Shown here piece by piece: positions 39,821 to 56,737 of a stretch of DNA of 64,000 nt. Both the position numbers and the translations under genes were made by a program. Every line of letters starts with the position of its first letter. Positions within the stretch are counted from its first letter, which is position 1. The notes under the pieces were generated by a model that was given only the letters and a program-made list of their open reading frames with translations, had not been told where the DNA came from and did no database searches. The DNA comes from Halobacteriales archaeon (lineage in GTDB: Archaea; Halobacteriota; Halobacteria; Halobacteriales; SKSH01): the NCBI GenBank assembly GCA_007118145.1, contig SKSD01000056.1, positions 19,851-83,850 of the forward strand. Reading direction: 5' to 3'.

Positions 39821-39838
39821 TTCAACTGGATGGTTGAA
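39821..39838. promoter_or_regulatory. palindrome TTCAAC-N6-GTTGAA overlapping the ATG of the second ArsR gene
   Basis: ttcaactggatggttgaa is a perfect 6-bp inverted repeat. A related CATTCAACC lies at 39784-39792. Confidence 0.4.
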
Positions 39839-40168
39839 CGACCAGAGGACGATGCCGATCTGGACTCGATATTCCAGGCACTGGCCCATCCCACTCGGCG
39901 GGCACTCATCGAGCAACTCGCCGGTGGACCGGCGAACGTGTCGACGCTTGCAGAACCACATGACATGTCGCTCGCGGCGGTGTCAAAGCACCTGCAGGTC
40001 CTCGAGGAAGCCGGCCTCATCGAGGTCGAACCAGAGGGTCGGGTGAGACGCTGTCATCTCGATGGCACACCGCTGAGTGCAGCCTTTGGCTGGCTCACGC
40101 GGTACCGCATCTTCTGGGAAGACCGGTTCGACGCACTTGAAGACCATCTGGAGCAGGAACACCAATGA
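39830..40168 (+). CDS. ArsR/SmtB-family transcriptional regulator
   Basis: IFQALAHPTRRALIEQLAGGPANVSTLAEPHDMSLAAVSKHLQVLEEAGLI. Confidence 0.8.
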   Translation: MVERPEDDADLDSIFQALAHPTRRALIEQLAGGPANVSTLAEPHDMSLAAVSKHLQVLEEAGLIEVEPEGRVRRCHLDGTPLSAAFGWLTRYRIFWEDRFDALEDHLEQEHQ

Positions 40169-40235
40169 CATCAATTCCATACGAAGCGGTACCGCAGACG
40201 AACTTCCCTGATGCCCCCATCACCGAGGTCCGACC

Positions 40236-41162
40236 ATGACCGATGTCGATACCTCTGCGACGAGCCTCACCGTCCGCCGCGTGATCGACGCCCCTCAAGC
40301 ACAGGTATGGAGGGCGTTCACCATTCCAGACGAGTTAGCATCGTGGCAATCGATCGGCAACCTCGAGGTGATCGTCCACCAACTCGACGTCACCGTCGGT
40401 GGCCAGTTGGCGCTCACACATGATCACGGATCGATGCGAGTCGAGATCGAGGGGGAGTACCTCGAGGTGAGCGAGCCCGAACGGCTCGTCCACACCTGGC
40501 GCATGGTCGAGGGACCTCTCGGTGATGATGAGACTCGAATCACCGTCGAGCTCACACCGGTCGACGGTGGGACCGAGGTCGTCTTCACACACGACGAGAT
40601 CGACCCTGAGGTGTTCGACGCAGCCCACGTCGAAGGGACGGCGGCTGGCTGGGTGAGCATGCTCAACCGGCTGGCGGCCACCATCGACGGTGGGTTCGAC
40701 TACAGCGTGTACGATACGACAATTGAGCGGACGTTCGACGCACCGGTCGAGCGTGTCTGGCAGGCGTGGACAGATCCCACGGAGGTATCACAGTGGTGGG
40801 GTCCGACTCACTTCACGGTGCCACACTGCGAGATCGAGCTCAAGTCTGGTGGCACGTACGAGATACACATGGCCGATCCCGAGGGGAACATCTACCCTGA
40901 TAACGGTGAGGTCGTCGAGCTAGACGAACCCGAACGGCTCGTCCTCCTGAGCAGGGCTTTCGAGACGACAGATGGTCACCAACTCGAGGTGTTGAACACA
41001 ATCACCTTCACCGGCCGTGGTGAACAGACAGACGTGACACTCGAGGCAGAGGTGCGCAAAGCCTCGCCAGCGATCGATGACGCACTCGGTGGGATGGAAC
41101 TAGGCTGGAAGCAGAGCTTCAGTAAGCTCGACACACACCTGGATGTTGAGATGAGTGTCTAA
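40236..41162 (+). CDS. tandem SRPBCC (AHSA1/Aha1-like) domain protein
   Basis: Two halves each begin with the family pattern: RRVIDAPQAQVWRAFTIPDELASW and ERTFDAPVERVWQAWTDPTEVSQWW. Confidence 0.75.
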   Translation: MTDVDTSATSLTVRRVIDAPQAQVWRAFTIPDELASWQSIGNLEVIVHQLDVTVGGQLALTHDHGSMRVEIEGEYLEVSEPERLVHTWRMVEGPLGDDETRITVELTPVDGGTEVVFTHDEIDPEVFDAAHVEGTAAGWVSMLNRLAATIDGGFDYSVYDTTIERTFDAPVERVWQAWTDPTEVSQWWGPTHFTVPHCEIELKSGGTYEIHMADPEGNIYPDNGEVVELDEPERLVLLSRAFETTDGHQLEVLNTITFTGRGEQTDVTLEAEVRKASPAIDDALGGMELGWKQSFSKLDTHLDVEMSV

Positions 41163-44077: not shown

Positions 44078-44287
44078 CTATCCGACGAACACTGAGAGGA
44101 CAAGCCCCATGACGAAGATCCCGATGATGATACTGACCGCGTAGGCAATCATGAACCCGAGGGTCAACGCGATGGTCCGGAAGTATTGAGGTTTACCGAC
44201 GAACCATCCGATGAGCATGAGGTACACGGGGAGGAGAACGATACCGAAGATTACGTACAGACCGATGTGGGCGACCTCGTGTGTCAT
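44078..44287 (-). CDS. small membrane protein (2-3 TM helices) translationally coupled to the NrfD-like gene
   Basis: 69 aa. The start overlaps the upstream stop by 4 nt. Confidence 0.55.
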   Translation of the reverse strand: MTHEVAHIGLYVIFGIVLLPVYLMLIGWFVGKPQYFRTIALTLGFMIAYAVSIIIGIFVMGLVLSVFVG

Positions 44288-45591
44288 GCTTCCACCTCGG
44301 ATGGTTCGATTTCAACCAATGGAATCACCTTCGAGGCGAGCAGGAAGCCCAGCGCAACGAGGACGATCGTGCCAGAGAACAGTATCCACTCAGAGAGTGT
44401 CGGAGCGTACCATCCTGAGGGATATAGATTCGTCACCGGTGGGGAGGTGGGATGCATCAGGCCCTCCACGACGAACATAACCTTCTTGTTGAGGATAGTC
44501 ACCGCGAGGACCCCTGCGACCACGCCGATTGCGGCCACGTTGAAGAACCGCTCGGGCCACGCGATCATCGCGAACAGAGCGATGACTGACCCGATGAGGC
44601 CGGCGATGGCTATCCAGAAGAAGTGAAGCTCCAGCATGCCCGCCGTCATGGCCGCGATGTTCACTGGAGGCATGTAGTACCCGGTGAGGACGTTGTGTAG
44701 GGTGAACCAGAGGGTTCCGAGCGCGAGGAACGCCATAACGATAGCGAGATCGCGGAAGATGTGATCGTCGATGAAGTCGTGCCATCCGTAGGCGTATCTG
44801 ACAACCGCCGCTACGATGACGACACCTGCAACGGCACTCGTGAGCGACTCGGTCAACATGGCCGCACCGGCCGCAGCACCGAACCACCCGGGTTGGGCAC
44901 CGATGAGGCTGAACAACCAGGGAACGACCCCGCCAGAGAGCAGCGGGACGAGTGCGAGGATTGCAACTGCCATCCACCAAAGGATCTGCTCGATCTTCTC
45001 GTCCTCTGCCTCCGAATAACCCACGGTGATGAACGCGTAAATCGGGGTGAAGTACCGTGGCAATTGATCGCGGAGAGCGGCGATCTCAGAGCGGAGTGAG
45101 AGCGTCATATACGTCAGGGAAAGGACCAGGTACATCGACAACACCGCAATGTCCCACGCCAGGGGGGAGTGATGAACAGTCCACGGCCACATAATGATCG
45201 TGTTAAAGATTCGATCCGGTCGACCGAGATCAAGTACGACGTTGAACGCAGCCATGGCAAGTGCCAGCACGGTCAACACCTCTGCAATACGGGCGATGAC
45301 CTGGTAGCGATCGATACTGAGGACGCGCACAGCTGCGGAGATTGCGATACCTCCGTGAGCCACGCCAATCCACCAGACGAAGCCACCGATGTACAGCCCC
45401 CATGGGACCTCGCCAGAGATGCCCCAGTCACCGAGTCCAGTCACTGCGAATATGCCGTATGTGAGCTGATGGCTCCATGCCTCTAACGCAATCAAGATCC
45501 AGAGGAGCAACAGTCCGAGTACGATCCAGAACTGCCTCGTCGTCTCCTTAAGAGGCTGTAAGACCTGTTCTGCGTCGATCTCTTCGGTCAT
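44284..45591 (-). CDS. NrfD/PsrC-family polytopic membrane (quinol-interacting) subunit
   Basis: 435 aa, many TM helices, with the DLGRPDR motif typical of NrfD/PsrC proteins. 4-nt overlap with the FeS gene. Confidence 0.75.
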   Translation of the reverse strand: MTEEIDAEQVLQPLKETTRQFWIVLGLLLLWILIALEAWSHQLTYGIFAVTGLGDWGISGEVPWGLYIGGFVWWIGVAHGGIAISAAVRVLSIDRYQVIARIAEVLTVLALAMAAFNVVLDLGRPDRIFNTIIMWPWTVHHSPLAWDIAVLSMYLVLSLTYMTLSLRSEIAALRDQLPRYFTPIYAFITVGYSEAEDEKIEQILWWMAVAILALVPLLSGGVVPWLFSLIGAQPGWFGAAAGAAMLTESLTSAVAGVVIVAAVVRYAYGWHDFIDDHIFRDLAIVMAFLALGTLWFTLHNVLTGYYMPPVNIAAMTAGMLELHFFWIAIAGLIGSVIALFAMIAWPERFFNVAAIGVVAGVLAVTILNKKVMFVVEGLMHPTSPPVTNLYPSGWYAPTLSEWILFSGTIVLVALGFLLASKVIPLVEIEPSEVEA

Positions 45592-46811
45592 TCTGATTCA
45601 CCCCCGGCGAGTTCATCGATGTAATCATAATCACCATCTTGCATCCCGTGATCCTCATAGGCAACCGGGCCCTGGATCGGGTCGGCGTTCTTCGACGGCT
45701 CCATGCCGATAAAGACGATATTGGGGTCATTCCCCTTCTCCTCAAGTAGTTTGAACTGATTCGCCTCCCCCTTCTCTTGGAGGTACCGTCGTGGATCGCT
45801 GTGGGGATTGTTCATGTCGCCGAAATGGATTACACCGAACGGACATGCCTGCTCACAGGCTGTCGTCCCACGAAGCTCGGGGTCATCGGCGTCCTGGCGA
45901 TGGACGCAGAATGTGCATTTCCCCATGACGCCAGCCGGGGGAGGACCACCGACGGGTTTACCGTCACGTCCAATCCTGTCACCATCGAACCCGTCAGATA
46001 TCTCTTCGTTAGGCTCATCGCTGCCGAGGTAGTTGACCCCGTACGGACAGGCCACTTGACAATATCGACAGCCGATACACAGGTCGTAATCTGTCAGCAC
46101 AACGCCGTCCTCAGTCCGTTTGTACCGTGCCTGTGTCGGGCATACATACGTGCAGGTGGGTTCAGAGCAGTGCTGACAGTGACGGGTGAGATATCCCTCC
46201 CGCGTCCCGCCCGCATGCTCGTCCTCGTAGCGAAAGACGTACGGCCAGTGCACGCCGATGTCGGTATCGTTCTCCTCCTTACATGCCAGCGAGCACTGGA
46301 GACAGGCGACACAGCGTTCAGTATCGACCACCATCCCAAGCTGTTTTCTGTGAGGTATCTCGTCGATAATCCCCTCGTCGGTTACCTCACCGTCGATATC
46401 GTCTCGGATCTCTGATTCGCCGCCGAGGGTGTCCTCGAGCGAGGCATCAGTCCCGATACAACCGGCAAGACCCGTTGTCCCGGCAATCGATAGGCCACCA
46501 AGTGCTTTCAACACGCGCCGTCGGGACCGCCCGTCCGTATCGGGAACCTTGGGGAGCGGTTCGGATTCGTCACTTTCTCGCCCCGCCGACCGTCGTGTAG
46601 GGCGTTCGTCGATACCGAACTCCGACTGGACTGCCTCCGTGTACCGCTCATGGAATTCGGCCTTCGAGAGCCCCCCTTTCGCGATGCTCAGGGCGTCCTC
46701 GGCCATCTCTCTCCCAAGCTGGATGTCGAAGCCGCTACCGTCCAGTTGCTCTTCGACCCAGTCGTCCCAGCCTGGTTCATTCGGGTCAGGGGGTAAGTCC
46801 ATGGATTCCAT
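45588..46811 (-). CDS. NrfC/PsrB/DmsB-type 4x[4Fe-4S] protein with a Tat motif preceded by a ~95-aa N-terminal domain
   Basis: Four Cys clusters: CVACLQCSLAC, CQHCSEPTCTYVCP, CIGCRYCQVACP and CTFC...CEQACP. GRSRRRVLKALGGLSIAGTTGLAGC lies at residues ~94-118. Confidence 0.8.
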   Translation of the reverse strand: MESMDLPPDPNEPGWDDWVEEQLDGSGFDIQLGREMAEDALSIAKGGLSKAEFHERYTEAVQSEFGIDERPTRRSAGRESDESEPLPKVPDTDGRSRRRVLKALGGLSIAGTTGLAGCIGTDASLEDTLGGESEIRDDIDGEVTDEGIIDEIPHRKQLGMVVDTERCVACLQCSLACKEENDTDIGVHWPYVFRYEDEHAGGTREGYLTRHCQHCSEPTCTYVCPTQARYKRTEDGVVLTDYDLCIGCRYCQVACPYGVNYLGSDEPNEEISDGFDGDRIGRDGKPVGGPPPAGVMGKCTFCVHRQDADDPELRGTTACEQACPFGVIHFGDMNNPHSDPRRYLQEKGEANQFKLLEEKGNDPNIVFIGMEPSKNADPIQGPVAYEDHGMQDGDYDYIDELAGGESE

Positions 46812-47104
46812 TCAGCAAGTCACTGGCTCCAACTTATGTGCGAAGGACCGAGAAACAATCTTTGAAAACTACAGTCTTTTATAACCTCTGCAGTGCCGTG
46901 GATACTTACCGTCGGTCTGGCGATGTCGTAACGTGGCGTTGCGAAGCTGGCCGGTTATTGAAAGTAACCGAGCGCAAGCCCACGGCTTCAGCCGTGGGAG
47001 GCTGTCAATCTCACCCGGATGGACCGCCATTTCTGGCGTCGATTTAAAGGTCTTAATACTACAAACAAGAGGTTTCCTGGCGCTGTCTCCATTATTCGAC
47101 GAGG

Positions 47105-48445
47105 ATGAGTGACAATAACGCTTCCCCGGAAGGAGATGAGCCGGGAGTCGGTTCGGCGATTGACCTCGTGAACCGCGATGGTCCGGTAGATAGTTCACGA
47201 CGAAAATTCATGCTGGCCGGCGCTGCCACCTGGGCGTCGATATCTCTAGCGGGGTGCACGGATTTGTTGAGCAACGAGGAGGAACCCGAGGAGACGGTAC
47301 CCCATTTCGTCGTGACCGACGAGGTATTTGCTGGATCGGCAGGTATCCCCGAAGGTGCGGAGGGATTTTTCGTCCCAGGCCAACCGCTCAGAGCATTCAT
47401 CCCGGGGATGCAAGCGGTATTCAAAATCGGCGTCTGGGATCCAGAAACGGGTGCCATCGTGAGCGACGTCGCTCTCGACGAGGTCTTGGTCGATCTCGAT
47501 AGGGCCGAGGAGATCGAGCTCATCTTCGCACGCAACGACCGAGAATGGACCGGTGACTGGAACATCCCCGAAGATGAGGAAACTGGGACCGTGACGTATG
47601 AGGTCAGCGTCACGAACGCAGCGGAATTCACCCAGGTTGGGATCGCGGAGAACGAGCTAGAAATTGTCGACTTTCAACCACTGTTCACGAGCTACGTAGT
47701 GACCGACGACACGTACGCGACGGAGACCAGAGCAGGCGGGTACGTCCAATCGTGTCTACCCCAACACAATTTTTCCTCAGATATGGCCATCGGGTTCGAC
47801 ATCGGCATCTACGATGGGTCGACCGGGGACCCGGTCGGGCCCGATACCGTCGATGAGGTCGTCATCGAGTTCGAGGTGGGCGAGCCATCGACGATGGAGC
47901 TCGAGTGGGACGAGGACGACGAGCTCTGGAACAACGTCTGGAGGGGCACCCCGGACGATTTCACCGGGACGCTCACCTACGAGGTGCAGGTGACCAACGA
48001 GGCTGAGTTTAACCAGGTAGGCGTCTACCAGGGGTCGGTCGAGATTATCGACGCAGCAGCCGATCCGACAGCGACGTACGTGGTGACGGATGATACGTAT
48101 TCGACCGAGACCCGGGCAGATGGGTTCGTGCAGTCATGCTTGCCCCAGCACACGTTCACCCCCGAGATGCCAGTCGGGTTCGACATCGGCATCTACGATG
48201 GGTCGACTGGGGACCCGGTCGGGCCTGATACCGTCGACGAGGTGGTCATCGAATTCGAGGTGGGCGATCCATCGACGATGGAGCTCGAGTGGGACGAGGA
48301 CGACGAGCTCTGGAACAACGTCTGGAGGGGCATCCCGGACGATTTCACCGGGACGCTCACCTACGAGGTGCAGGTGACCAACGCGGGCGAGTTCTATCGC
48401 GTAGGCGTCTATCAGGGATCGTTCCAAGTCATCGAAGAGCCGTAG
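47105..48445 (+). CDS. Tat lipoprotein built from three ~128-aa repeats, unknown function
   Basis: DSSRRKFMLAGAATWASISLAGC. A GTG at 47168 would give a canonical signal (MNRDGPVDSSRRKF...). Units 2 and 3 are near-duplicates. Confidence 0.7.
   Translation: MSDNNASPEGDEPGVGSAIDLVNRDGPVDSSRRKFMLAGAATWASISLAGCTDLLSNEEEPEETVPHFVVTDEVFAGSAGIPEGAEGFFVPGQPLRAFIPGMQAVFKIGVWDPETGAIVSDVALDEVLVDLDRAEEIELIFARNDREWTGDWNIPEDEETGTVTYEVSVTNAAEFTQVGIAENELEIVDFQPLFTSYVVTDDTYATETRAGGYVQSCLPQHNFSSDMAIGFDIGIYDGSTGDPVGPDTVDEVVIEFEVGEPSTMELEWDEDDELWNNVWRGTPDDFTGTLTYEVQVTNEAEFNQVGVYQGSVEIIDAAADPTATYVVTDDTYSTETRADGFVQSCLPQHTFTPEMPVGFDIGIYDGSTGDPVGPDTVDEVVIEFEVGDPSTMELEWDEDDELWNNVWRGIPDDFTGTLTYEVQVTNAGEFYRVGVYQGSFQVIEEP
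47693..48445 (+). repeat. in-frame tandem duplication, period 384 bp
   Basis: 47792-47999 versus 48176-48383 differ at 7 of 208 positions by my count. The 5' ~100 nt of each unit are much more diverged. Confidence 0.85.
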
Positions 48446-48620
48446 CCAACCTAGAGGTGTCGACGCGTAGCAGCGATAGTGCGTCGTCTCCATCCATGCG
48501 AGTTAGCCTATGTTCCAGTCTGTCTGGCGGCTTTTGCAGGAGCCTTGGAATGTGTCTTAAATAAGGCTGTAATATCGGTACGAACGACCATTGGCGTTTC
48601 CAGATAATCTGGAATCGACA

Positions 48621-49280
48621 ATGGATGCCCACCAGCGAATGGATCACGTCTCCGAGGATTCAACCGGAGAGGCGATTCGAACGACGGTCGATAAGGTTGT
48701 CGCGGCAGGGCAGTTACTCGCCTCACCGCGAAAGTGTGCCACCTGGCACGAATGCTGGCTTTACGACGGTCTGACCATTCAGGATATCGCCGAGCATACC
48801 GGTATCCCACAAAGCACCACGTACGACCTCACTCGGGAGATGACCGCCGAGGGAAGCCTCTTCAGCGTCGGAACCACGGCATCGAACGCCTCCATCATGA
48901 AACCCACTTCGATGCAGTTTTTCGTCTCAAGCCATCCAGAGGGGATTGGGCCCCAATACAACGTACACAGCACGTTGATCGGTGTACTCGGACGAGGCAC
49001 AACGACGGATGATGTTGAGACGTTTCTGGAACGAAACAACTACACCCAGCTTTCGGAGGCAATCACCGGTGTCCTTTCTATCCTCTCCAACGAGGACATC
49101 GAGATGCCTCTCGAATCGCATTTCGGATGGATGAAATCGATTGATGCCCGTCTCATCGAGGGTCACATCGCGGCAGTCCTCGAACTCGAATCACACGCCC
49201 CTGGAATCGAATGGGTGTTTCCCCTCAATCCCAGGATTCAGCCTGCATCCGGTGATAACGACCGAGAGGTGATCCCATGA
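48621..49280 (+). CDS. putative HTH transcriptional regulator
   Basis: LTIQDIAEHTGIPQSTTYDLTREMTAEGSL is HTH-like. I prefer the ATG at 48621 over the TTG at 48591. The family is not identified. Confidence 0.5.
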   Translation: MDAHQRMDHVSEDSTGEAIRTTVDKVVAAGQLLASPRKCATWHECWLYDGLTIQDIAEHTGIPQSTTYDLTREMTAEGSLFSVGTTASNASIMKPTSMQFFVSSHPEGIGPQYNVHSTLIGVLGRGTTTDDVETFLERNNYTQLSEAITGVLSILSNEDIEMPLESHFGWMKSIDARLIEGHIAAVLELESHAPGIEWVFPLNPRIQPASGDNDREVIP

Positions 49281-50443
49281 GACCGGACCTCGACCATGGA
49301 TATGCACCTGATGAGCCTCGGACTCATACAACCGACACACCAAGGATAACTGCAGAATCATTATCGGTGAGTCCCACACGCCGGACCTTTCTCACCACAG
49401 TTGCCCTCGGGGTTGGGGCTGTCAGCGGTTGCCTGGGATCAAACCGATCTGATGACTATCGATCAGTGACGTATCGCCATCGGTTCGATCGAAGTGGGAT
49501 TGGGTCTGCGGTGTACGATGGAGGGGTTGAACTCGGATCGTGGGAGGCGCACGAGCTCGATGTCGAGTTCAAGATATCCTCCGGTTCGAGAGCGGCGGCA
49601 CAATCGGTCGATGGCGGCCAGGATGATTTCGCGAACGCCGAAATCGCAGCGGTGTTGTCGCTGATTGATGCAGGTGCGCCCTTGACGATACTCGCCCAAG
49701 AGACCACGCCGATGGGTGGGGTGATTACGCTTCGTGAGACGGGTATATCCTCATGGACTGATTTGGCAGGGGTCGAGGTGGGGCGGTTTCCGTGGGGCGT
49801 CACGGGGCAACTGGCGGAAGCTGCGATTACGTCCGAGGGAGGTGACCCCAATGCGGTCGAGTGGCGTAACGTCGAACCCGGTGCACACATTCAGTTACTC
49901 TTGGAGGGAGCCATCGACGGGGCCGTCGCTTACTATCCGCAAGCCGTAACTCGCCTTGAGTTGGCTGGCCATGAGACGCAAGTCCTGCCACTTGGGACCG
50001 TGCTCGATCACCTCGGTAACGCCCTCATCACCCGTCAGGAGATCGTTGACGAGCACCCGGAGGTCGTCGAACGATTTGTTCGTGGATGGCTCGATGCCCA
50101 TGACACGTTCATCTCACGGACCGACGACGTCATCGACGTTCATCGAGATTTGGTACCTAATTTCGATGAAACAGTCGAGCGAGAAGTCCTGCCACTGATT
50201 CTCGCCTCGCGAATCGCACCCGAGACCGACCTCGAATCGGGTATGGGCTGGACGCCGATTGAACGGATGACCAATACGCTGGATATTCTCGAGCAAATCG
50301 ATATGCTCTCATCGGCTGATACACCGGAGACTTACTTCACGAACCGGTTCATCGAAGAGTCACAGGATCGGGCGATAGATATTGCTGAGCGGTATGCACA
50401 GACGCTCGAACAGGATTATGATATCGAACCGACGGCAGTATGA
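49277..50443 (+). CDS. ABC transporter substrate-binding lipoprotein, NitT/TauT (NMT1/SsuA-like) family
   Basis: TRRTFLTTVALGVGAVSGCLG is a Tat signal with lipobox. The ATG at 49277 overlaps the upstream stop (ATGA). A GTG at 49367 would give a conventional signal peptide. Confidence 0.7.
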   Translation: MRPDLDHGYAPDEPRTHTTDTPRITAESLSVSPTRRTFLTTVALGVGAVSGCLGSNRSDDYRSVTYRHRFDRSGIGSAVYDGGVELGSWEAHELDVEFKISSGSRAAAQSVDGGQDDFANAEIAAVLSLIDAGAPLTILAQETTPMGGVITLRETGISSWTDLAGVEVGRFPWGVTGQLAEAAITSEGGDPNAVEWRNVEPGAHIQLLLEGAIDGAVAYYPQAVTRLELAGHETQVLPLGTVLDHLGNALITRQEIVDEHPEVVERFVRGWLDAHDTFISRTDDVIDVHRDLVPNFDETVEREVLPLILASRIAPETDLESGMGWTPIERMTNTLDILEQIDMLSSADTPETYFTNRFIEESQDRAIDIAERYAQTLEQDYDIEPTAV

Positions 50444-51234
50444 ACACGATCGACGGTACCAAGGTGTGGTCGGGCATCACCAGGTTCATCCCACGTTCCT
50501 TACACGAAGCGACGTGGCCACTGGCGATCCTGATAGTGCTTATCGGCGCCTGGGAGGTGGCCATACCCGTCCTCGACGTCCCTGGATACATCCTTCCCCC
50601 ACCATCGGCCGTTGCCTCGGCGTTTGTTGACCACCACCCAACCATTTTCGACGCCTTACTCGTCACGCTGCAGGCATTCGCCATCGCATTCGGTTTGACG
50701 GTCCTCACGGGGTATGTGCTTGCCCTCGCAATGTACGAGTGGACGCCCCTTGAGAAGACGGTATATCCGTACGTCATCGCCGCTCGGGCCATCCCGATTG
50801 TAGCGTTGATTCCAATCTTTGTTATCTGGTTCGGCTTCGGGTTTCGGTCGATCGTGATAATCAGCTACCTCATCAGCGTCTTCGCCATGGTCGTCAACTC
50901 ACTCGCTGGCTTCAAATCGACTGATCCGAAGATCATCGAGATGCTCGACAGTTTCTCTGCGTCTCGTTGGGATCGCTTTCGCCATGTGCACCTGTATGGC
51001 TCGATGCCGCTCGTCCTGGCGGGCACAAAGATTTGCGTCATTCTTGCATTCACGGGCGTCATCGTCGGAGAGTTCCTCATCGGAACGGAGGGGATCGGCT
51101 ATCTGATCATGTCATACAATAGTACGTTTGACACGGCGCCGATGTTTGCTGGCATCGTGACTATCGCCGTTACCCAGTTAAGCCTCTTCGGCGCGGTTGT
51201 GCTGCTTGAACGGTCCCTCATCACCTGGCGATAA
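50440..51234 (+). CDS. ABC transporter permease (NitT/TauT family)
   Basis: 264 aa with about 6 TM helices. ATGA overlap with the SBP gene. Confidence 0.75.
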   Translation: MNTIDGTKVWSGITRFIPRSLHEATWPLAILIVLIGAWEVAIPVLDVPGYILPPPSAVASAFVDHHPTIFDALLVTLQAFAIAFGLTVLTGYVLALAMYEWTPLEKTVYPYVIAARAIPIVALIPIFVIWFGFGFRSIVIISYLISVFAMVVNSLAGFKSTDPKIIEMLDSFSASRWDRFRHVHLYGSMPLVLAGTKICVILAFTGVIVGEFLIGTEGIGYLIMSYNSTFDTAPMFAGIVTIAVTQLSLFGAVVLLERSLITWR

Positions 51235-51261
51235 CGACACCGTTTCGTTGTCACCTGCCGA

Positions 51262-52035
51262 TTAGGTGGTGAGCAGGCCAAGTTCGGCCCGAAGCTCCTG
51301 CTTTAACGCACCGTAACGCCGTGAAGTTTCAATCTCTCGCCGTCGATCGGATCGGGGACGATCGAAGTTGAGGGGAATGTATCTGAGTACCCTGCTCGGA
51401 CGATGCGAGAGAACCACGACGCGGTCGCCCAGAAGTAGCGCTTCATCGATGTCGTGTGTTACAAAAATCACGGTCTTATCGCCGTCCCACAATTGGAGTA
51501 ACTCAGATTGCATACGGTCTTTGGTTTGGGCATCCAAAGCCCCGAACGGTTCGTCCATCAGGAGGACAGCCGGATCCGTTGCGAGTGCCCGTGCCAGCCC
51601 TACACGCTGTTTCATTCCCCCCGAAAGATCGGAGGGATACGCGTCGATCATGTCGGACAGACCCACCCGTTCGATCCACTCCTTCGCTATAGCTGTCCTC
51701 CTTTTCGCCCCATAGCCATGTTGCACGGTTAACCCGAGGGCGACGTTCTCAAGGACGGACTTCCACGGGAGCAGGACGAACTCCTGGAACACCATCGAAA
51801 TATCCTCACGTTGGCCATCGACCGGGTCGTCATCGACGGTGATCCATCCGGAGGTTGGCTCGACCAGCCCAGCGATGGCCTTCAAGAGGGTCGTTTTTCC
51901 ACAACCAGACGGCCCGAGAACGACTAGGAACTCATCTTCATCGACTGCAAATGATAAGTCGTGTAACACGGGATCTGGCTGGTGATTCGATTGATAGGTG
52001 TAGGAGACGTCGGAGAGGGTGATCGAATGGCCCAT
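51262..52035 (-). CDS. ABC transporter ATP-binding protein (NitT/TauT family)
   Basis: Walker A GPSGCGKTT, signature LSGGMKQR, Walker B LLMDEPFGALD. Confidence 0.85.
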   Translation of the reverse strand: MGHSITLSDVSYTYQSNHQPDPVLHDLSFAVDEDEFLVVLGPSGCGKTTLLKAIAGLVEPTSGWITVDDDPVDGQREDISMVFQEFVLLPWKSVLENVALGLTVQHGYGAKRRTAIAKEWIERVGLSDMIDAYPSDLSGGMKQRVGLARALATDPAVLLMDEPFGALDAQTKDRMQSELLQLWDGDKTVIFVTHDIDEALLLGDRVVVLSHRPSRVLRYIPLNFDRPRSDRRREIETSRRYGALKQELRAELGLLTT

Positions 52036-52038
52036 GAA

Positions 52039-52623
52039 TCAACCCTCTAGCTGATGCGCTCGCAGGCACCCCTGCGTATCTGAAGCATCTTCCTCATCGC
52101 CCTGACGTTCGTGGAAATATTGCTCGAGGTTCTCGAAGTATCGATTGACATCGGACTCCACGATCGGTCGCAATAACCCTGGCGTGAGGACGGCGGATCC
52201 TCCCTCGAAGGTGAGATTCGCCCGATATGCGAGTTCGGTCGCCTCATCAGAGGATCGCGACATCTGGAGTGCTGCCGTACCGGTGAATACCGAGTGTGTC
52301 CGGGAATCATAGGCGTCGCCCTTGATCACGACCCAGTTCGGTTCTTCTTTCTCCACAATTTCTACTGTCCCATCGATGCTGAGGGTGAGCCGACTGACCG
52401 ATCGGGTGACATCGAGTGAATACCTCGTATCAGATTGGCGTGTGATGTCATTCGATCCAGGGATGCATGTCGCCAAAAACGCAGGATCCTCAATCTGACG
52501 CCAAAGGTCATCCCGATCACCCTCGATGACGACCCGATCTTCGAACACGAGTTGACGCCCTGTCTCCACTGCTGTCGCCTCCATGACCTCGGCTGCTTCA
52601 GACGCTCGATCACCCTCAGTCAC
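52039..52623 (-). CDS. CoxG/SRPBCC-family protein
   Basis: 194 aa. ...DLWRQIEDPAFLATCIPG...LTLSIDGTVEI... fits the CoxG pattern. Its stop is 3 nt from the ATPase start. Confidence 0.6.
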   Translation of the reverse strand: MTEGDRASEAAEVMEATAVETGRQLVFEDRVVIEGDRDDLWRQIEDPAFLATCIPGSNDITRQSDTRYSLDVTRSVSRLTLSIDGTVEIVEKEEPNWVVIKGDAYDSRTHSVFTGTAALQMSRSSDEATELAYRANLTFEGGSAVLTPGLLRPIVESDVNRYFENLEQYFHERQGDEEDASDTQGCLRAHQLEG

Positions 52624-52698
52624 GATACACCACCCTTGGGGACGGATTTTCCGGGTGTACTATCCGAGTTCCACCTGCGTCACGTGAACACCGTATGC

Positions 52699-54144
52699 TC
52701 ATTGTTCCGTGATCTCGAATGCGAGATGCATGGCCGGAAGTGCTCGCACCGGGTGATTGTTCTGATACGAGAGGTGTGCTTTTTCGCCGACATCCGGAAG
52801 CTCTTCTTTGGTCTCGAAGAAGCTTGGGTACACGTCGATGAAGTGCCATCCCGGTTCGCCACATGCACGCAGCTTCGTTCGAACCACCCCAACGTCCTTT
52901 TCCATGTCGACCCCACACACGTAGCCAAGTGAGCGATTGTCATATACGAAGAAGTAGGCGTTCTCGTAAGTCGGCCAACCGATGCCCGTGAGTTCGATGT
53001 CGATTTCCGTTCCGACCGGCCCACTCGTCGGTTCAAACGTGACGATATCCGGTTGCATGACGAAGCCTGTCACGGCCACTTTGGTCCCGCCGACCTCTGC
53101 GACGATTGGCCGTGTCCCCCCCATTCCATTTGGAATGGTCAGATCGAGCGAGAACGCCCCGGATTCATCGGTCGTCACCGTGGGAAGTACATCCTCGCGT
53201 GGTTCGGGCTCGATGGGGGTCCCCGCCACGCGGTTTCCGACGTGGGTATACCATGTAAGGTCGACCGTTGTACTGGGTGGGAACGCTCGGCCGTGAAGAC
53301 GTGCCGAGGTGCCGGGTTGACCGGATGTCGGCATGATCTCAAGTGTCGCATCGGATTCCACATCGAGTGATGGGAGATGTGAGGCAAGTGGCTCTTCGCT
53401 CACGAGCGAATCCATTGATGTCGACTCAGGCGGGTTTTCCGGTGGTTCCACGGTCACCGTCCATACGGATTGTCGCCCCCCTGCTACAGGCCCGAACGGC
53501 GATTGTGTGTTATTCTGGAGAAACGGGACGCCTCGGAGATTTCGCCACACTTGAATCACGTGATCTCCGGGTGGACCGGTGGCACGAATCTTCGCCGTCG
53601 CCGTGCCGTTGTTCATCGTTCCGGTCATGAATCCAACTACCCCGTTGTCCCAGGCGATTTGGTAGTTGTTCGTGATAGCATTCGGCCCGAGGCCGTAACC
53701 TGTGATGGTGAACGAGTCCCCCAGTTTCGCTCGCGTGGTGTCGAGTTCGAACCAGGGCACTATCGTCACTGAGGTCTTGGCCACTACCTCCCCGGCGGTC
53801 GTCTGTAGCTCGATCCGATGGTCGCCGCCGTAATCCTCGGGGAGTGCCCACTCGTAGGTGACGGTCCCATACGCATCCGTAGAAATTGTATCGATCACCT
53901 CAGAACGGTGTTGGAACTGTGGTCCGATGACCTCGTTCCCTTGCACGATGCCCCAGCCACCCCTGGCGGTGTGCCAGACGATGTCGAGTGGTTCGTCGGG
54001 TGGTAGCTCGCGACCATGGAGGGTGATGTGATCACCGATGTAGGCGGTCGAATCACTCACCACCGCGGTACCTCTGGTTGCATTCTGGGTGTGCTCATCC
54101 AGCTTCGAAGCTGTCTCTGATGATAGACCGGGATTCTTCCTCAT
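52699..54144 (-). CDS. 481-aa protein of four Ig/IPT-like repeats with no signal peptide, unknown function
   Basis: A repeating pattern recurs: GDHITLHGRELPP, LGDSFTITGYGLGP, GQPGTSARLHGRAFPP, GPVGTEIDIELTGIGWP. The N-terminus is polar with no hydrophobic segment. Confidence 0.6.
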   Translation of the reverse strand: MRKNPGLSSETASKLDEHTQNATRGTAVVSDSTAYIGDHITLHGRELPPDEPLDIVWHTARGGWGIVQGNEVIGPQFQHRSEVIDTISTDAYGTVTYEWALPEDYGGDHRIELQTTAGEVVAKTSVTIVPWFELDTTRAKLGDSFTITGYGLGPNAITNNYQIAWDNGVVGFMTGTMNNGTATAKIRATGPPGDHVIQVWRNLRGVPFLQNNTQSPFGPVAGGRQSVWTVTVEPPENPPESTSMDSLVSEEPLASHLPSLDVESDATLEIMPTSGQPGTSARLHGRAFPPSTTVDLTWYTHVGNRVAGTPIEPEPREDVLPTVTTDESGAFSLDLTIPNGMGGTRPIVAEVGGTKVAVTGFVMQPDIVTFEPTSGPVGTEIDIELTGIGWPTYENAYFFVYDNRSLGYVCGVDMEKDVGVVRTKLRACGEPGWHFIDVYPSFFETKEELPDVGEKAHLSYQNNHPVRALPAMHLAFEITEQ

Positions 54145-54427
54145 CGTTACGTATTGAGAGTGTATCCACCGTGGTCGGTGCTTCGCTGGGATATTAAGGC
54201 CTTTAAGAACACCTCGATCAGCGCCCAGCGAGAGGTGATGTGACGACTGGTGGTCAACGGTGATACTCCGGCATCCTACCCTCGACAGGTATCACGCAAC
54301 AAGCCCACCGGTGGTTGTGAGCTTGTGTGTCCAAATGAACCAATGTCGACAGCGACCACACCACCGTCGATCCCGCGAATCCATCGGAGATCGGTTCACC
54401 GTGTACGTTGCCTCGCTGTGGTATCTG

Positions 54428-55303
54428 TCACGGAGGGCTACCGCCTGGCCAATCCTCCTCCGCAAATTTGCCACTTTCCAGGGAGAAGTCGTCACGAGGG
54501 AAACCCTGACAGGTCAGTGTGTATCCGTCCTGTAACGCTGCATCGTCCAGATATTCGTAGTCGTTCACCTCCAGATGGACGAGCTCGCGGGTGTCGCCAT
54601 CGACCTGTGCGAGGCATTGTCCACACCAGCCCTCGCGACAGCGATATGGCAGTTCGAAGCCGCGTTCTTCGCCCGCGACTAGGAGACTTTGATCCTCCGG
54701 GACCTCTATTGTCCAGCGTTCGTTCACGTAGTCGATTGTGTGTGTCGCCTCGATTGTGCCATCGACCTCATCGTCATCGTCGTCATCGACGACGAGCGCC
54801 CCAACCTGACCGGTCTGGAGGGAGAAGTCGCTTCGAGGGTAGCCCGTGCACGTCAGCACATATCCATCCTCGATGGCGCGGTCGTCCAGCGGGTCGTACT
54901 TGTTGATAGTCATGTGGACGAGCTCGTGACCGTCACCGTCAACGCGGGCGAGACACTGTCCACAGAAACCCGTCCTGCAGAAGTAGGGAAGATCCCAGCC
55001 CTGTGCCTCCCCGGCCTCTAGCAGATTTTCATTCCCGGCCACCTCGATGGTATCCTCTTCGTTCTCGAATGTGATGTCGAACCGGTCCTCGATACCTACG
55101 ATTGGTGCCTCCCGAGGTGACGGCTCGCCGAACACACCTAAACAGCCGGCCAACGCAAACGAGCCACCCGCGGCCATCAATCCGAGGACTTCGCGACGAT
55201 GCGAAGTGAGTGGAGTAGCGTCGCATGAGTTACCCTTGTTTTTACAGGAGCGACCGTTTTGACAGTGGCCCTCCTCACCGTGGCAGTTCCGCTCCTCGTT
55301 CAT
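54428..55303 (-). CDS. Tat lipoprotein with two plant-type [2Fe-2S] ferredoxin domains and a Cys/His-rich pre-signal segment
   Basis: SHRREVLGLMAAGGSFALAGC. Two copies of C-x4-C-x2-C...C: FCRTGFCGQC...LTCTG and RCREGWCGQC...LTCQG. The N-terminus is NCHGEEGHCQNGRSCKNKGNSC. Confidence 0.75.
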   Translation of the reverse strand: MNEERNCHGEEGHCQNGRSCKNKGNSCDATPLTSHRREVLGLMAAGGSFALAGCLGVFGEPSPREAPIVGIEDRFDITFENEEDTIEVAGNENLLEAGEAQGWDLPYFCRTGFCGQCLARVDGDGHELVHMTINKYDPLDDRAIEDGYVLTCTGYPRSDFSLQTGQVGALVVDDDDDDEVDGTIEATHTIDYVNERWTIEVPEDQSLLVAGEERGFELPYRCREGWCGQCLAQVDGDTRELVHLEVNDYEYLDDAALQDGYTLTCQGFPRDDFSLESGKFAEEDWPGGSPP

Positions 55304-55619: not shown

Positions 55620-55961
55620 CTAGGCAACGTCTGAGGTTTCTTGGGAATCTTGTCTGGCCGAACCCTCTATTAAAGGACCCCATAGGGCAGCTGTGAGGCC
55701 GTTACTTCTTTGCTCCAGTGCGGAGAGGTTTTCGGAGACGGTTTCGCTTTCAAGGAACTCTCGACACCCCGTGAGGTTATCGAACACGAACACCAGTTTG
55801 TACCGATTGGTCTCCACGTCGTACTCGCGATACAAGCGAAAGCCATGTACACCAACGGAGGTACCAAGACCAGTAGTCACCTCTGAGAACCACGGGACCC
55901 TAAACTCCTCATCAACCAGCTCGAACTCGATCTCATAGATGATCGCGCCATCGAGGTTCAT
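55620..55961 (-). CDS. hypothetical protein (113 aa)
   Basis: ATG-initiated with plausible composition. No motif recognised. Confidence 0.45.
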   Translation of the reverse strand: MNLDGAIIYEIEFELVDEEFRVPWFSEVTTGLGTSVGVHGFRLYREYDVETNRYKLVFVFDNLTGCREFLESETVSENLSALEQRSNGLTAALWGPLIEGSARQDSQETSDVA

Positions 55962-56077: not shown

Positions 56078-56737
56078 TCAGGGAACGTTACCATCTACTC
56101 TATAGAGCGCACGAACAAGCGTTGATTCGGCTGAGTTGAGTCGCTGTGAGACCGCCGATTGCGATACCCCGATATGCTCGGCGAGTTCGGCAAGATCTGC
56201 CCTGCGGGGACTGTCATAATAGCCTGATTCAATAGCAGCCTCGATGGCTTCACGCTGTTTCTCCGTGACGAGGTCAGCATCGAGTTCGAGCGTTCTCGTC
56301 CCATCGGTTCGATCTTTCAATGGTAGGATGCTTTCGAGCGTGACGACCGCTCCTCGCGCTCGAAGCCCTTCGATGATATCGCGGAGGATTTGGCGATTGG
56401 GCACCGTCACAGCAACGAACAGGCAATCGGCGCGAAACGACCTGATATCAACGACACAATCCGTCTCGGAAAATACCGGACAGACACAGTAGTCAGTTAC
56501 CGTCGAAGCGACGAATCGTCTCCTACACTCACCATCGTCAGAGACCTTCACCTCGGCCCGACACCCAGGGGTAGTCTCACCTTTCGGCCTCACATCGTTT
56601 CGATGGATATCGTCACCTCGCGGCCCACTGTCGAGTATTGCACATGCTGCCTCCGACGAAACTTCGACACATAGGCGAGCAGTCAGTGACCGGTCGCTGT
56701 CTCGATCCCTACTGGAAGGAGCGGTCCGGGAGGCCAT
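56078..56737 (-). CDS. Bat-type (HTH_10) transcriptional regulator
   Basis: C-terminal LTEKQREAIEAAIESGYYDSPRRADLAELAEHIGVSQSAVSQRLNSAESTLV. Confidence 0.8.
   Translation of the reverse strand: MASRTAPSSRDRDSDRSLTARLCVEVSSEAACAILDSGPRGDDIHRNDVRPKGETTPGCRAEVKVSDDGECRRRFVASTVTDYCVCPVFSETDCVVDIRSFRADCLFVAVTVPNRQILRDIIEGLRARGAVVTLESILPLKDRTDGTRTLELDADLVTEKQREAIEAAIESGYYDSPRRADLAELAEHIGVSQSAVSQRLNSAESTLVRALYRVDGNVP

Follow-up and report, generated by a model that had tools for sequence, protein, structure and literature searches.

Complex iron-sulfur molybdoenzymes (CISMs) of the Psr, Phs, Ttr, Dms and Nrf types combine an NrfD-type quinone anchor with an outward-facing FeS subunit that carries four clusters and depends on twin-arginine translocation (Tat), and it is generally assumed that NrfCD modules require a catalytic subunit of the molybdo- or haem type. 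In Qrc (QrcABCD) and in alternative complex III (ACIII), a core of NrfD and FeS proteins serves as an electron hub that joins the quinone pool to a periplasmic carrier and not to a site of substrate conversion. Here, we describe a block of eleven genes, numbered g1 to g11 in coordinate order, at positions 44078-55303 of a 64,000-nucleotide stretch from a Halobacteriales archaeon (contig SKSD01000056.1 of assembly GCA_007118145.1, positions 19,851 to 83,850; this whole stretch is referred to as the window). The block contains such a core. Unlike the CISMs, it was found to encode neither a catalytic subunit of the molybdopterin or multihaem type nor a chaperone of the NarJ/DmsD type, the place of the A subunit is filled by a lipoprotein that has two plant-type [2Fe-2S] domains, and its NrfC has a haloarchaeal Ferredoxin_N extension. 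Unlike Qrc and ACIII, which contain multihaem cytochromes c and an inactive Mo-like subunit, it has neither, and the carrier is a di-[2Fe-2S] lipoprotein. A 2021 review of NrfD complexes lists no such architecture (PMC8076601), and no description of the cluster was found in the main texts of the literature on the combination of haloarchaea, NrfD and CoxG.

This analysis revealed that the block combines two conserved modules, assembled in a lineage-specific manner, and is not one fixed pathway. The first module, M1, comprises g11 (a Tat lipoprotein with two [2Fe-2S] domains), g3 (NrfC), g2 (NrfD) and g1 (a transmembrane protein of about 70 residues). The second, M2, has the g4-g10 pair at its core. 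M1 is a new variant within the NrfCD/CISM group, and the block is not an ordinary one. The initial annotation, made from the letters of the DNA, had listed eleven open reading frames (ORFs), with 4-nt overlaps at g1/g2, g2/g3, g5/g6 and g6/g7 and a 3-nt gap between g9 and g8. All eleven were found where it had placed them and on the same strands, the junctions are borne out by the coordinates, and its observation as a whole was confirmed. The window sequence matches contig SLDP01000010.1 exactly, which belongs to the metagenome-assembled genome (MAG) GCA_007125235.1, and its nearest relatives are haloarchaeal.

The NrfCD module and its exported ferredoxin

Three of the M1 genes lie together on the minus strand. 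The small subunit g1 (44078-44287(-), 69 residues) is an ORF with two hydrophobic segments, and g2 (44284-45591(-)) is an NrfD-type membrane subunit (Pfam NrfD PF03916, E-value 7.7e-18, above cut-off) with about ten transmembrane segments and no cysteine. The NrfC-type protein g3 (45588-46811(-); Pfam Ferredoxin_N, 7.1e-25, and Fer4_11) has 16 cluster cysteines in four groups, for four [4Fe-4S] clusters, and its twin-arginine motif (SRRRVL, residue 96) and lipobox (LAGC, residue 115) come after an N-terminal Ferredoxin_N domain; its best NCBIfam match is DsrO (1.6e-38), followed by ArrB and QrcC, all of them under the family cut-offs. The fourth gene, g11 (54428-55303(-)), is separated from g3-g2-g1 in the window by seven other genes. 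Its product is a Tat lipoprotein (HRREVL and LAGC) with two plant-type [2Fe-2S] domains (two Pfam Fer2 matches, 4.3e-26) and two Cx4Cx2Cx29C motifs, at residues 109 and 222, and its best NCBIfam match is fdx_plant TIGR02008 (1.1e-34; 118 bits against a cut-off of 81). A twin-arginine motif and a lipobox were found by pattern check in g3, g4, g6 and g11, whose export is thus predicted, and neither was found in g10. As an exported Tat-signal protein with two [2Fe-2S] clusters, g11 is reminiscent of the small subunit of PaoABC and IorAB, which are periplasmic molybdenum hydroxylases. In contrast to the [2Fe-2S] subunits CoxS, PaoA and IorA, it consists of two Fer2 PF00111 domains with no Fer2_2 PF01799, and the window encodes no Mo or FAD subunit.

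With regard to relatives, the loci are designated by L-numbers, and their gene neighbours are known for the fetched flanks of 10 kb. The closest homologues of g2 (55-98% identity) are all haloarchaeal. M1 forms a four-gene operon, in the order 2xFer2, NrfC with Ferredoxin_N, NrfD and 70-residue transmembrane protein, beside a DmsR-like regulator in Halalkaliarchaeum sp. AArc-CO (L067) and in Natronorubrum daqingense (L068). Identities to g11, g3, g2 and g1 are 54, 61, 73 and 58% in the former and 47, 50, 55 and 49% in the latter, with orthology assigned by tblastn. A different order, 2xFer2, NrfD, NrfC and g4-like, is found in Halodesulfurarchaeum formicicum (L065) and Halapricum hydrolyticum (L059), where the g4-like gene is the last of the operon. 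The g11 orthologue therefore sits before NrfC or NrfD in all four of these loci, and the twin-arginine motif and lipobox are kept in every g11 orthologue inspected. Given that this exported 2x[2Fe-2S] protein is a conserved operon partner of NrfCD, an outward chain from quinone through FeS clusters to the [2Fe-2S] protein is the natural reading of the module.

Another haloarchaeon, Halovivax gelatinilyticus (L070, 4891-9736), has the NrfC(Ferredoxin_N)-NrfD-70-residue module beside a divergent gene for a 525-residue EB_dh protein of the haem-b type, not beside 2xFer2, which suggests that the distal carrier is interchangeable. In this locus, as in L067 and L068, a g1 homologue directly follows NrfD. 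DmsR-like homologues flank M1 in all three, on both sides in Halovivax, and precede g10 in L059, L065 and L003. The window has a DmsR_N/HTH_10 regulator at 56078-56737(-) (Pfam HTH_10, 1.5e-19; DmsR_N, 2.8e-6), beyond the range of the initial annotation, and this gene belongs to the block.

No molybdopterin domain was found in any ORF of the block and its flanks, and no ORF of the window is large enough for such a subunit. No protein of the block and flanks matched a NarJ/DmsD-type chaperone (Nitrate_red_del), and none of the 13 proteins checked contains CxxCH. The earlier statement that this NrfCD pair lacks a classical catalytic subunit is thus borne out. It had also been considered that relatives might carry a catalytic subunit next to NrfCD. 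Among close relatives (55-98% identity) this was not seen, the Mo subunit being absent from L034, L065, L067 and L068 as well. More distant relatives (about 40% identity) do carry one, which speaks of origin and not of decay: in Dehalococcoidia and Bathyarchaeia (38-40% identity) we found a Mo subunit whose best match is PhsA, an FeS subunit, NrfD and a small g1-like protein, and a Nitrate_red_del/NarJ-like chaperone is present in the Dehalococcoidia relative L069. The g1 counterparts in these Mo-enzyme operons have 72-77 residues and are 36-39% identical to g1, so the small transmembrane subunit is shared with them. Judged from sequence, M1 is a derived, Mo-free complex that stems from a Psr/Phs-like molybdoenzyme and not a decayed remnant, because only distant relatives carry a Mo subunit at that position; the exported di-[2Fe-2S] lipoprotein appears to have taken the place of the catalytic subunit.

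Two additional features of M1 proteins were observed. Residues 1-27 of g11 (55223-55303(-)), ahead of the twin-arginine motif, form a Cys/His-rich stretch, CHGEEGHCQNGRSCKNKGNSC; the orthologues of Halalkaliarchaeum and Natronorubrum have a comparable Cys-rich stretch, those of Halapricum and Halodesulfurarchaeum do not, and the Natronorubrum NrfC begins with a Gly/Cys-rich stretch. Three bacterial NrfD homologues (P0289, P0291 and P0292; 27-29% identity, 687-717 residues) are much longer than g2. P0289 has an immunoglobulin (Ig)-like Big_1 domain, in keeping with the Ig-like transmembrane protein encoded after NrfD in the Chloroflexia operon described below.

The g4-g10 pair

In the window, g4 (47105-48445(+)) and g10 (52699-54144(-)) lie on opposite strands, 4.3 kb apart. 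The former encodes a Tat lipoprotein and the latter a protein of 481 residues without a signal peptide. Neither matched a Pfam or NCBIfam model above threshold. According to AlphaFold2, g4 is composed of three beta-sandwich domains (mean predicted local distance difference test score, pLDDT, 71), with low-pLDDT loops at residues 208-219 and 338-346, and g10 of four (pLDDT 84; predicted template modelling score, pTM, 0.81). Repeats 2 and 3 of g4 are 81% identical, and repeat 1 is 35-38% identical to them; g10 is a 2+2 internal duplication whose halves are 32% identical. It had been considered that these two proteins might turn out to belong to well-characterised families, and they match none. 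Foldseek searches of the PDB with both models returned generic Ig and macroglobulin (MG) domain arrays only (alpha-2-macroglobulin, complement MG domains), with TM-scores of at most 0.3, and pointed to no fold of a catalytic or metal-binding kind. Against PDB chains, searches by sequence and by profile with both proteins gave nothing meaningful, hhalign detected no relationship between the g10 and g4 profiles, and Pfam searches at E-values up to 1 with bacterial g4-like and g10-like proteins gave sub-threshold TIG matches only.

Several residues are nevertheless strongly conserved. In g4, the alignment shows an invariant cysteine, C217 in 'QSCLPQHNF', which the AlphaFold2 model places where a repeat begins, in a loop of low confidence, and the cysteine is followed 4-12 residues on by methionine or histidine. 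In three-repeat g4 proteins the first repeat is devoid of it. In the g10 family, one histidine is invariant in each of domains 1, 2 and 4 and nearly invariant (at least 90%) in domain 3, and in domain 4 the cysteine of GYxCGFN, the aspartate of YDN and the histidine of DHP are invariant or nearly so.

The pair is very widely distributed. We found 236 haloarchaeal g10 homologues (53-69% identity), every one annotated as hypothetical, and a profile search of 1.84 billion cluster representatives revealed about 50 full-length g10 families (clusters at 50% identity, about 500 residues) outside this clade. All of the out-of-clade homologues inspected have Sec or lipoprotein signals, and three acidic, haloarchaeal-looking members have Tat-lipoprotein signals. 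A signal peptide missed upstream of haloarchaeal g10 was considered and rejected: the ORF cannot be extended any further, and the longer versions in databases result from wrongly called starts and lack the twin-arginine motif. A metagenome scan with an alignment of seven g10 sequences identified at least 566 relatives on contigs, and 80 loci were kept. A g4-like gene stands directly upstream of g10 and on the same strand in 70 of these 80, or 70 of the 71 with room upstream; apart from it, no neighbour recurs in more than six of the 80 soil-metagenome loci. The g10 homologue of Chloroflexia is itself a lipoprotein, and the gene before it encodes a g4-like lipoprotein with a single repeat. The pair also occurs in a haloarchaeal-type MAG (L072; 4-nt spacing, with Tat-lipoprotein signals on both proteins and, as in bacteria, a single-repeat g4 homologue), in a Bacillales locus (L074) and on a soil contig (L075). 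A distant g10-like protein was observed in a Nitrososphaerales MAG (L064, 8554-14074; 613 residues, signal peptide, 30% identity, E-value 2e-20), encoded directly upstream of putative Rieske and cytochrome b genes, as judged from their N-terminal sequences alone.

Association of the two modules

The initial annotation had treated the eleven genes as one unit and had regarded the orientation of the ATPase gene g8, shared with the redox genes, as the main link between the halves. Neither view held. M1 is found alone in Halalkaliarchaeum, Natronorubrum and Halovivax, g10 is without NrfC in 34 of 36 well-flanked haloarchaeal loci, and g4-g10 stand alone in soil bacteria. The link itself is better supported by conserved synteny, by bacterial NrfC-NrfD-g4-g10 operons and by an upstream motif common to g4 and g10. 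The overall interpretation is supported in part: the outward FeS chain is still the natural reading, and a connection between the importer, CoxG and g10, which is considered below, was confirmed.

It had been considered that the genes might not co-occur in relatives, and they do. Interleaving of M1 and M2 is seen in several haloarchaeal genera, the window and L034 showing two different gene orders, and the modules are adjacent in L024, L038, L042, L059 and L065. In three Chloroflexia loci and one Bacillota locus, NrfC, NrfD, an Ig-like transmembrane protein, g4-like and g10-like genes form a single co-oriented string. In a Bacillota MAG (L061, 12210-16446), the region 3' of the NrfC-NrfD-g4-g10 operon was seen to contain a Rex-type-looking regulator, a twin-arginine ORF of 878 residues and a second NrfC-like gene (39% to g3 by tblastn). 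Read from its N-terminus alone, the 878-residue ORF is likely a molybdopterin oxidoreductase, and these downstream genes may be a separate respiratory operon.

The motif TTAAAGGyCTTAATA was first spotted by eye and then tested. It matches exactly at 47044-47058(+) (TTAAAGGTCTTAATA), 47 nt before the start codon of g4, and at 54192-54206(-) (TTAAAGGCCTTAATA), 48 nt before that of g10, and no other site in the window has two or fewer mismatches; by chance, 0.25 sites would be expected in the window at up to three mismatches. In the 1.24 Mb of fetched loci, the sole match at up to two mismatches is a one-mismatch copy 50 nt before the g10 homologue of Haloferax sp. YSSS75 (L026, 9931-9945). A looser form, TTAAAnnnCTknATA, lies 57-77 nt before the point at which the tblastn match to the g10 homologue begins and is confined to loci that have DmsR-like regulators. 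When intergenic regions were compared by 9-mers, nothing emerged.

The importer, CoxG and other neighbours of g10

Between g4 and g10, the window encodes an HTH protein, an ATP-binding cassette (ABC) importer and a CoxG protein. The HTH (helix-turn-helix) protein g5 (48591-49280(+)) has an IclR-like N-terminus (Pfam HTH_IclR, 3.9e-6) and an unassigned C-terminal part; a homologue with 65% identity adjoins the g4 homologue of Halorubrum sp. DTA98 (L007). The substrate-binding protein (SBP) g6 (49277-50443(+); Pfam NMT1, 7.2e-22) is an NMT1/SsuA-type Tat lipoprotein with TRRTFL and VSGC. Its NCBIfam match SsuA_fam (8e-15) is under the cut-off, and the nearest PDB sequence is a taurine-binding protein (1.8e-6). 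The permease g7 (50440-51234(+); Pfam BPD_transp_1, 3.3e-22) has about six transmembrane segments, and the ATPase g8 (51262-52035(-); Pfam ABC_tran, 7e-35) is of the NitT/TauT type, with taurine ATPase as its best NCBIfam match (2.1e-70, under the cut-off). The NitT/TauT importers, which handle taurine, sulfonate, nitrate, hydroxymethylpyrimidine (HMP) and phthalate, are thus the best family for the SBP (NMT1 fold), the permease and the ATPase. In contrast to characterised members, every NCBIfam match is under its equivalog cut-off, so no substrate is assignable, and in the window the ATPase gene is convergent to those of the SBP and permease and stands beside CoxG and g10.

CoxG acts as a menaquinone-extracting shuttle in molybdenum-containing carbon monoxide dehydrogenase (Mo-CODH; PMC12202499). 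The CoxG/SRPBCC protein g9 (52039-52623(-)), which has no signal peptide, resembles it in having PF06240 above the cut-off (Pfam COXG, 8.5e-17; 61.6 bits against 22.2) and is a predicted quinone binder. In contrast to the Mo-CODH setting, the window has no CoxL, CoxM or CoxS, and g9 lies 3 nt from the ABC ATPase gene and adjoins g10. Public gene calls give later starts for g5 (219 residues, start near 48621) and g9 (181 residues), which are 10-13 codons shorter.

Neighbours of g10 were counted in 36 haloarchaeal loci with at least 5 kb on both sides of the gene. CoxG is within 10 kb of g10 in 28 of them, DoxX is near it in 22, a g4-like gene in 21, a homologue of 4,5-dihydroxyphthalate decarboxylase (PDB 9jp7, 4.9e-44) in 20, CoxLMS with XdhC/MocA in eight, a DmsR-like regulator likewise in eight, and NrfC in two; at least one of CoxG, DoxX and NrfC is present in 32. 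The association of importer, CoxG and g10 is confirmed by Halapricum (L059) and Halodesulfurarchaeum (L065), in which g10, the ABC genes and CoxG form one operon. Homologues of g4-g10 also adjoin IorAB-like genes (L075) and CoxLMS genes (L004 and others). Taken together, the neighbours CoxG, DoxX, O-methyltransferases, decarboxylase and Mo hydroxylases hint, though not decisively, at quinone, catechol or aromatic chemistry.

Some further neighbours of g10 were noted. In H. formicicum, a family-3 O-methyltransferase is encoded inside the g10-ABC operon. In Halapricum (L041, 7258-11425; L052, 6411-11428), the g10 homologue directly follows an AmmeMemoRadiSam set (radical SAM TIGR04337, 1.5e-102, and an A+B fusion). 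An ORF of 323-328 residues lies just 3' of the g10 homologue in L049 and L052, and the L049 copy, when scanned, gave weak methyltransferase matches below cut-off. DoxX also figures in a published proteome: when a haloarchaeal culture reduced Fe(III), the family member Hlac_0953 was reported to be up 12.6-fold (PMC13104607), and this protein may or may not correspond to the DoxX that adjoins g10 homologues.

Proposed mechanism and points against it

We give about an even chance to the reading that M1 is a conduit for electrons between menaquinone and the outer face of the membrane, with g4-g10 as its client where the two are linked. M1 would have arisen from a three-subunit Psr/Phs-like CISM with a small transmembrane subunit, the molybdopterin subunit having been replaced by a Tat-exported 2x[2Fe-2S] lipoprotein, and would be controlled by the DmsR-like regulator. 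The menaquinone pool, at NrfD and g1, would be connected by way of the four [4Fe-4S] clusters of NrfC to the ferredoxin with its two [2Fe-2S] clusters on the outer side of the membrane, and M1 would act as a conduit with no substrate site of its own. The g4-g10 pair is a self-standing extracytoplasmic cassette in bacteria, and M2 of this haloarchaeal clade consists of the pair joined to the NitT/TauT ABC importer, the quinone-binding-type CoxG and the HTH regulator. In loci that interleave M1 with M2, the pair would likely exchange electrons with M1. Haloarchaeal g10 would have lost its signal and could either be exported as a hitchhiker with the Tat-bearing g4 or work at the cytoplasmic face with CoxG and DoxX; in the Pao system, the signal-less PaoB and PaoC are exported by hitchhiking with PaoA. 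We infer both the electron transfer between M1 and g4-g10 and the location of haloarchaeal g10. A bolder proposal, which we hold tentatively and regard as unlikely, is that g4-g10 is a new extracytoplasmic redox or terminal module that plugs into NrfCD with or without the di-[2Fe-2S] ferredoxin, DoxX, CoxG or IorAB/CoxLMS, and that together with M1 it would form an undescribed respiratory complex free of Mo and haem, with an exported lipoprotein ferredoxin in the part that c-type cytochromes have in bacteria.

Were the conduit reading to be true, a conserved haloarchaeal NrfCD with an exported double [2Fe-2S] ferredoxin as its only distal partner would extend the list of quinone-linked complexes. 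It would suggest a route by which haloarchaeal electrons leave the membrane with no reliance on c-type cytochromes. The g4-g10 pair is a very common, uncharacterised two-gene cassette, and its repeated attachment to quinone-linked redox modules offers a handle on its function.

Several points weigh against this reading. The potentials of plant-type [2Fe-2S] clusters are usually well below that of menaquinone, so that the direction of electron flow is not readable from the genes. M1 and M2 each occur alone far more often than together: NrfC is near g10 in none of the 80 soil loci, and in three genera g4, g10 and ABC genes are all absent from the 10 kb around M1. No redox cofactor motif is recognisable in either g4 or g10, and the Foldseek matches given above are generic. 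Haloarchaeal g10 may not face M1 at all, because it has no signal peptide and shares an operon with cytoplasmic proteins. The proteome of H. formicicum (Table S11, PMC5437934) speaks for the reading in so far as it contains the g10 homologue, the SBP, the g4-like protein, NrfD and the 2Fe-2S protein. Their spectral counts in sulfur-, thiosulfate- and DMSO (dimethyl sulfoxide)-grown cells differ, however: the g10 homologue (0/0/6) and the SBP (0/0/5) were seen in DMSO-grown cells only, the g4-like protein (8/11/1) mainly in sulfur- and thiosulfate-grown cells, and NrfD (1/1/0) and the 2Fe-2S protein (1/0/0) were barely detected (PMC5437934). These low counts do not suggest co-regulation of g10 and the SBP with the g4-like protein.

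Alternative explanations

The alternative that survives best, which we consider possible if somewhat unlikely, is that two unrelated systems happen to be neighbours. M1 would then serve some other extracytoplasmic partner, and M2 would take up and process an aromatic or hydrophobic small molecule, with g4-g10 in a non-redox role of binding or capture. The occurrence of M1 alone in L067, L068 and L070 and of g4-g10 alone in soil bacteria is consistent with this, as is the detection of the two halves under different growth conditions in H. formicicum. The aromatic hints near g10 point the same way, namely the decarboxylase homologue in 20 of the 36 loci, CoxLMS with XdhC and MocA in eight and the O-methyltransferase in L065. 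However, mere neighbourhood does not readily explain the independent co-location of the modules in at least four haloarchaeal lineages with different gene orders, their union in single NrfC-NrfD-g4-g10 operons in two bacterial phyla, or the g4-like gene that closes the operon of 2Fe-2S, NrfD and NrfC genes in Halapricum and Halodesulfurarchaeum.

With regard to the chemistry that a linked pair might perform, the proteome and the Psr/Phs ancestry hint at sulfur and the conserved histidines and cysteines hint at a metal, and neither is decisive. In the case of sulfur, the loop cysteine of the g4 repeats would carry sulfane sulfur, as in SoxY or Sud, and M1 would reduce or oxidise it in a molybdenum-free manner. 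We regard this as improbable. Sulfur- and thiosulfate-respiring H. formicicum yielded the g4-like protein, NrfD and the 2Fe-2S protein, all of them detected much less with DMSO, the nearest Mo-containing relatives of M1 best match PhsA, the ABC importer is of the sulfonate/taurine family, and several g10 paralogues occur in the sulfur-respiring Halodesulfurarchaeum, Halanaeroarchaeum and Halapricum. DoxX, a relative of the thiosulfate:quinone oxidoreductase subunit DoxD, occurs close to g10 in 22 of the 36 loci. Against this, aerobic soil metagenomes commonly contain g4-g10 in surroundings free of sulfur genes, rhodanese, Sox and Dsr genes are missing from the block, such a cysteine is absent from repeat 1 of three-repeat g4 proteins, and the proteome counts are small.

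Metal handling is, in our view, just as doubtful. Here, g4 (with its Cys and Met/His) and g10 (with its His, Asp and Cys) would bind Cu or Fe outside the cytoplasm, and M1 would supply the electrons that reduce the bound metal. The invariant or nearly invariant His, Asp and Cys of the g10 family and the conserved g4 cysteine with Met or His 4-12 residues downstream would suit such a role, and genes for an HMA P-type ATPase or a cation diffusion facilitator (CDF) lie near L070, L072 and L074. The usual periplasmic Cu and Fe chaperones (CopC, PCuAC, P19) are small beta-sandwich lipoproteins; however, g4 and g10 matched neither these nor cupredoxins by sequence or by fold, the Met/His positions of g4 differ between clades, and the ABC importer is of a non-metal type.

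The view that the block is a remnant operon, that is, a decaying and non-functional Psr-type enzyme minus its catalytic subunit, is very improbable and was rejected on the grounds of conservation and proteomic detection, given that a Mo subunit does sit at the matching position in distant relatives but g2, g3, g1 and g11 are 47-98% identical across several haloarchaeal genera and retain every cluster cysteine and signal motif, proteomics detects both NrfD and the 2Fe-2S protein, and the 2xFer2 gene is consistently in the Mo subunit's place.

Other features of the window

A promoter and terminator scan with a sigma-70 model returned fewer sites than in shuffled sequence, this model not being applicable to archaea. 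Between g11 and the DmsR-like regulator lies a 113-residue ORF (55620-55961(-)) with no family match and no homologue in the other fetched loci, which may not be a real gene. The region 39830-41162(+), which lies 3 kb away from the block, encodes an ArsR-type HTH protein and, after it, a second SRPBCC protein of the window, with 308 residues and two AHSA1/SRPBCC domains.

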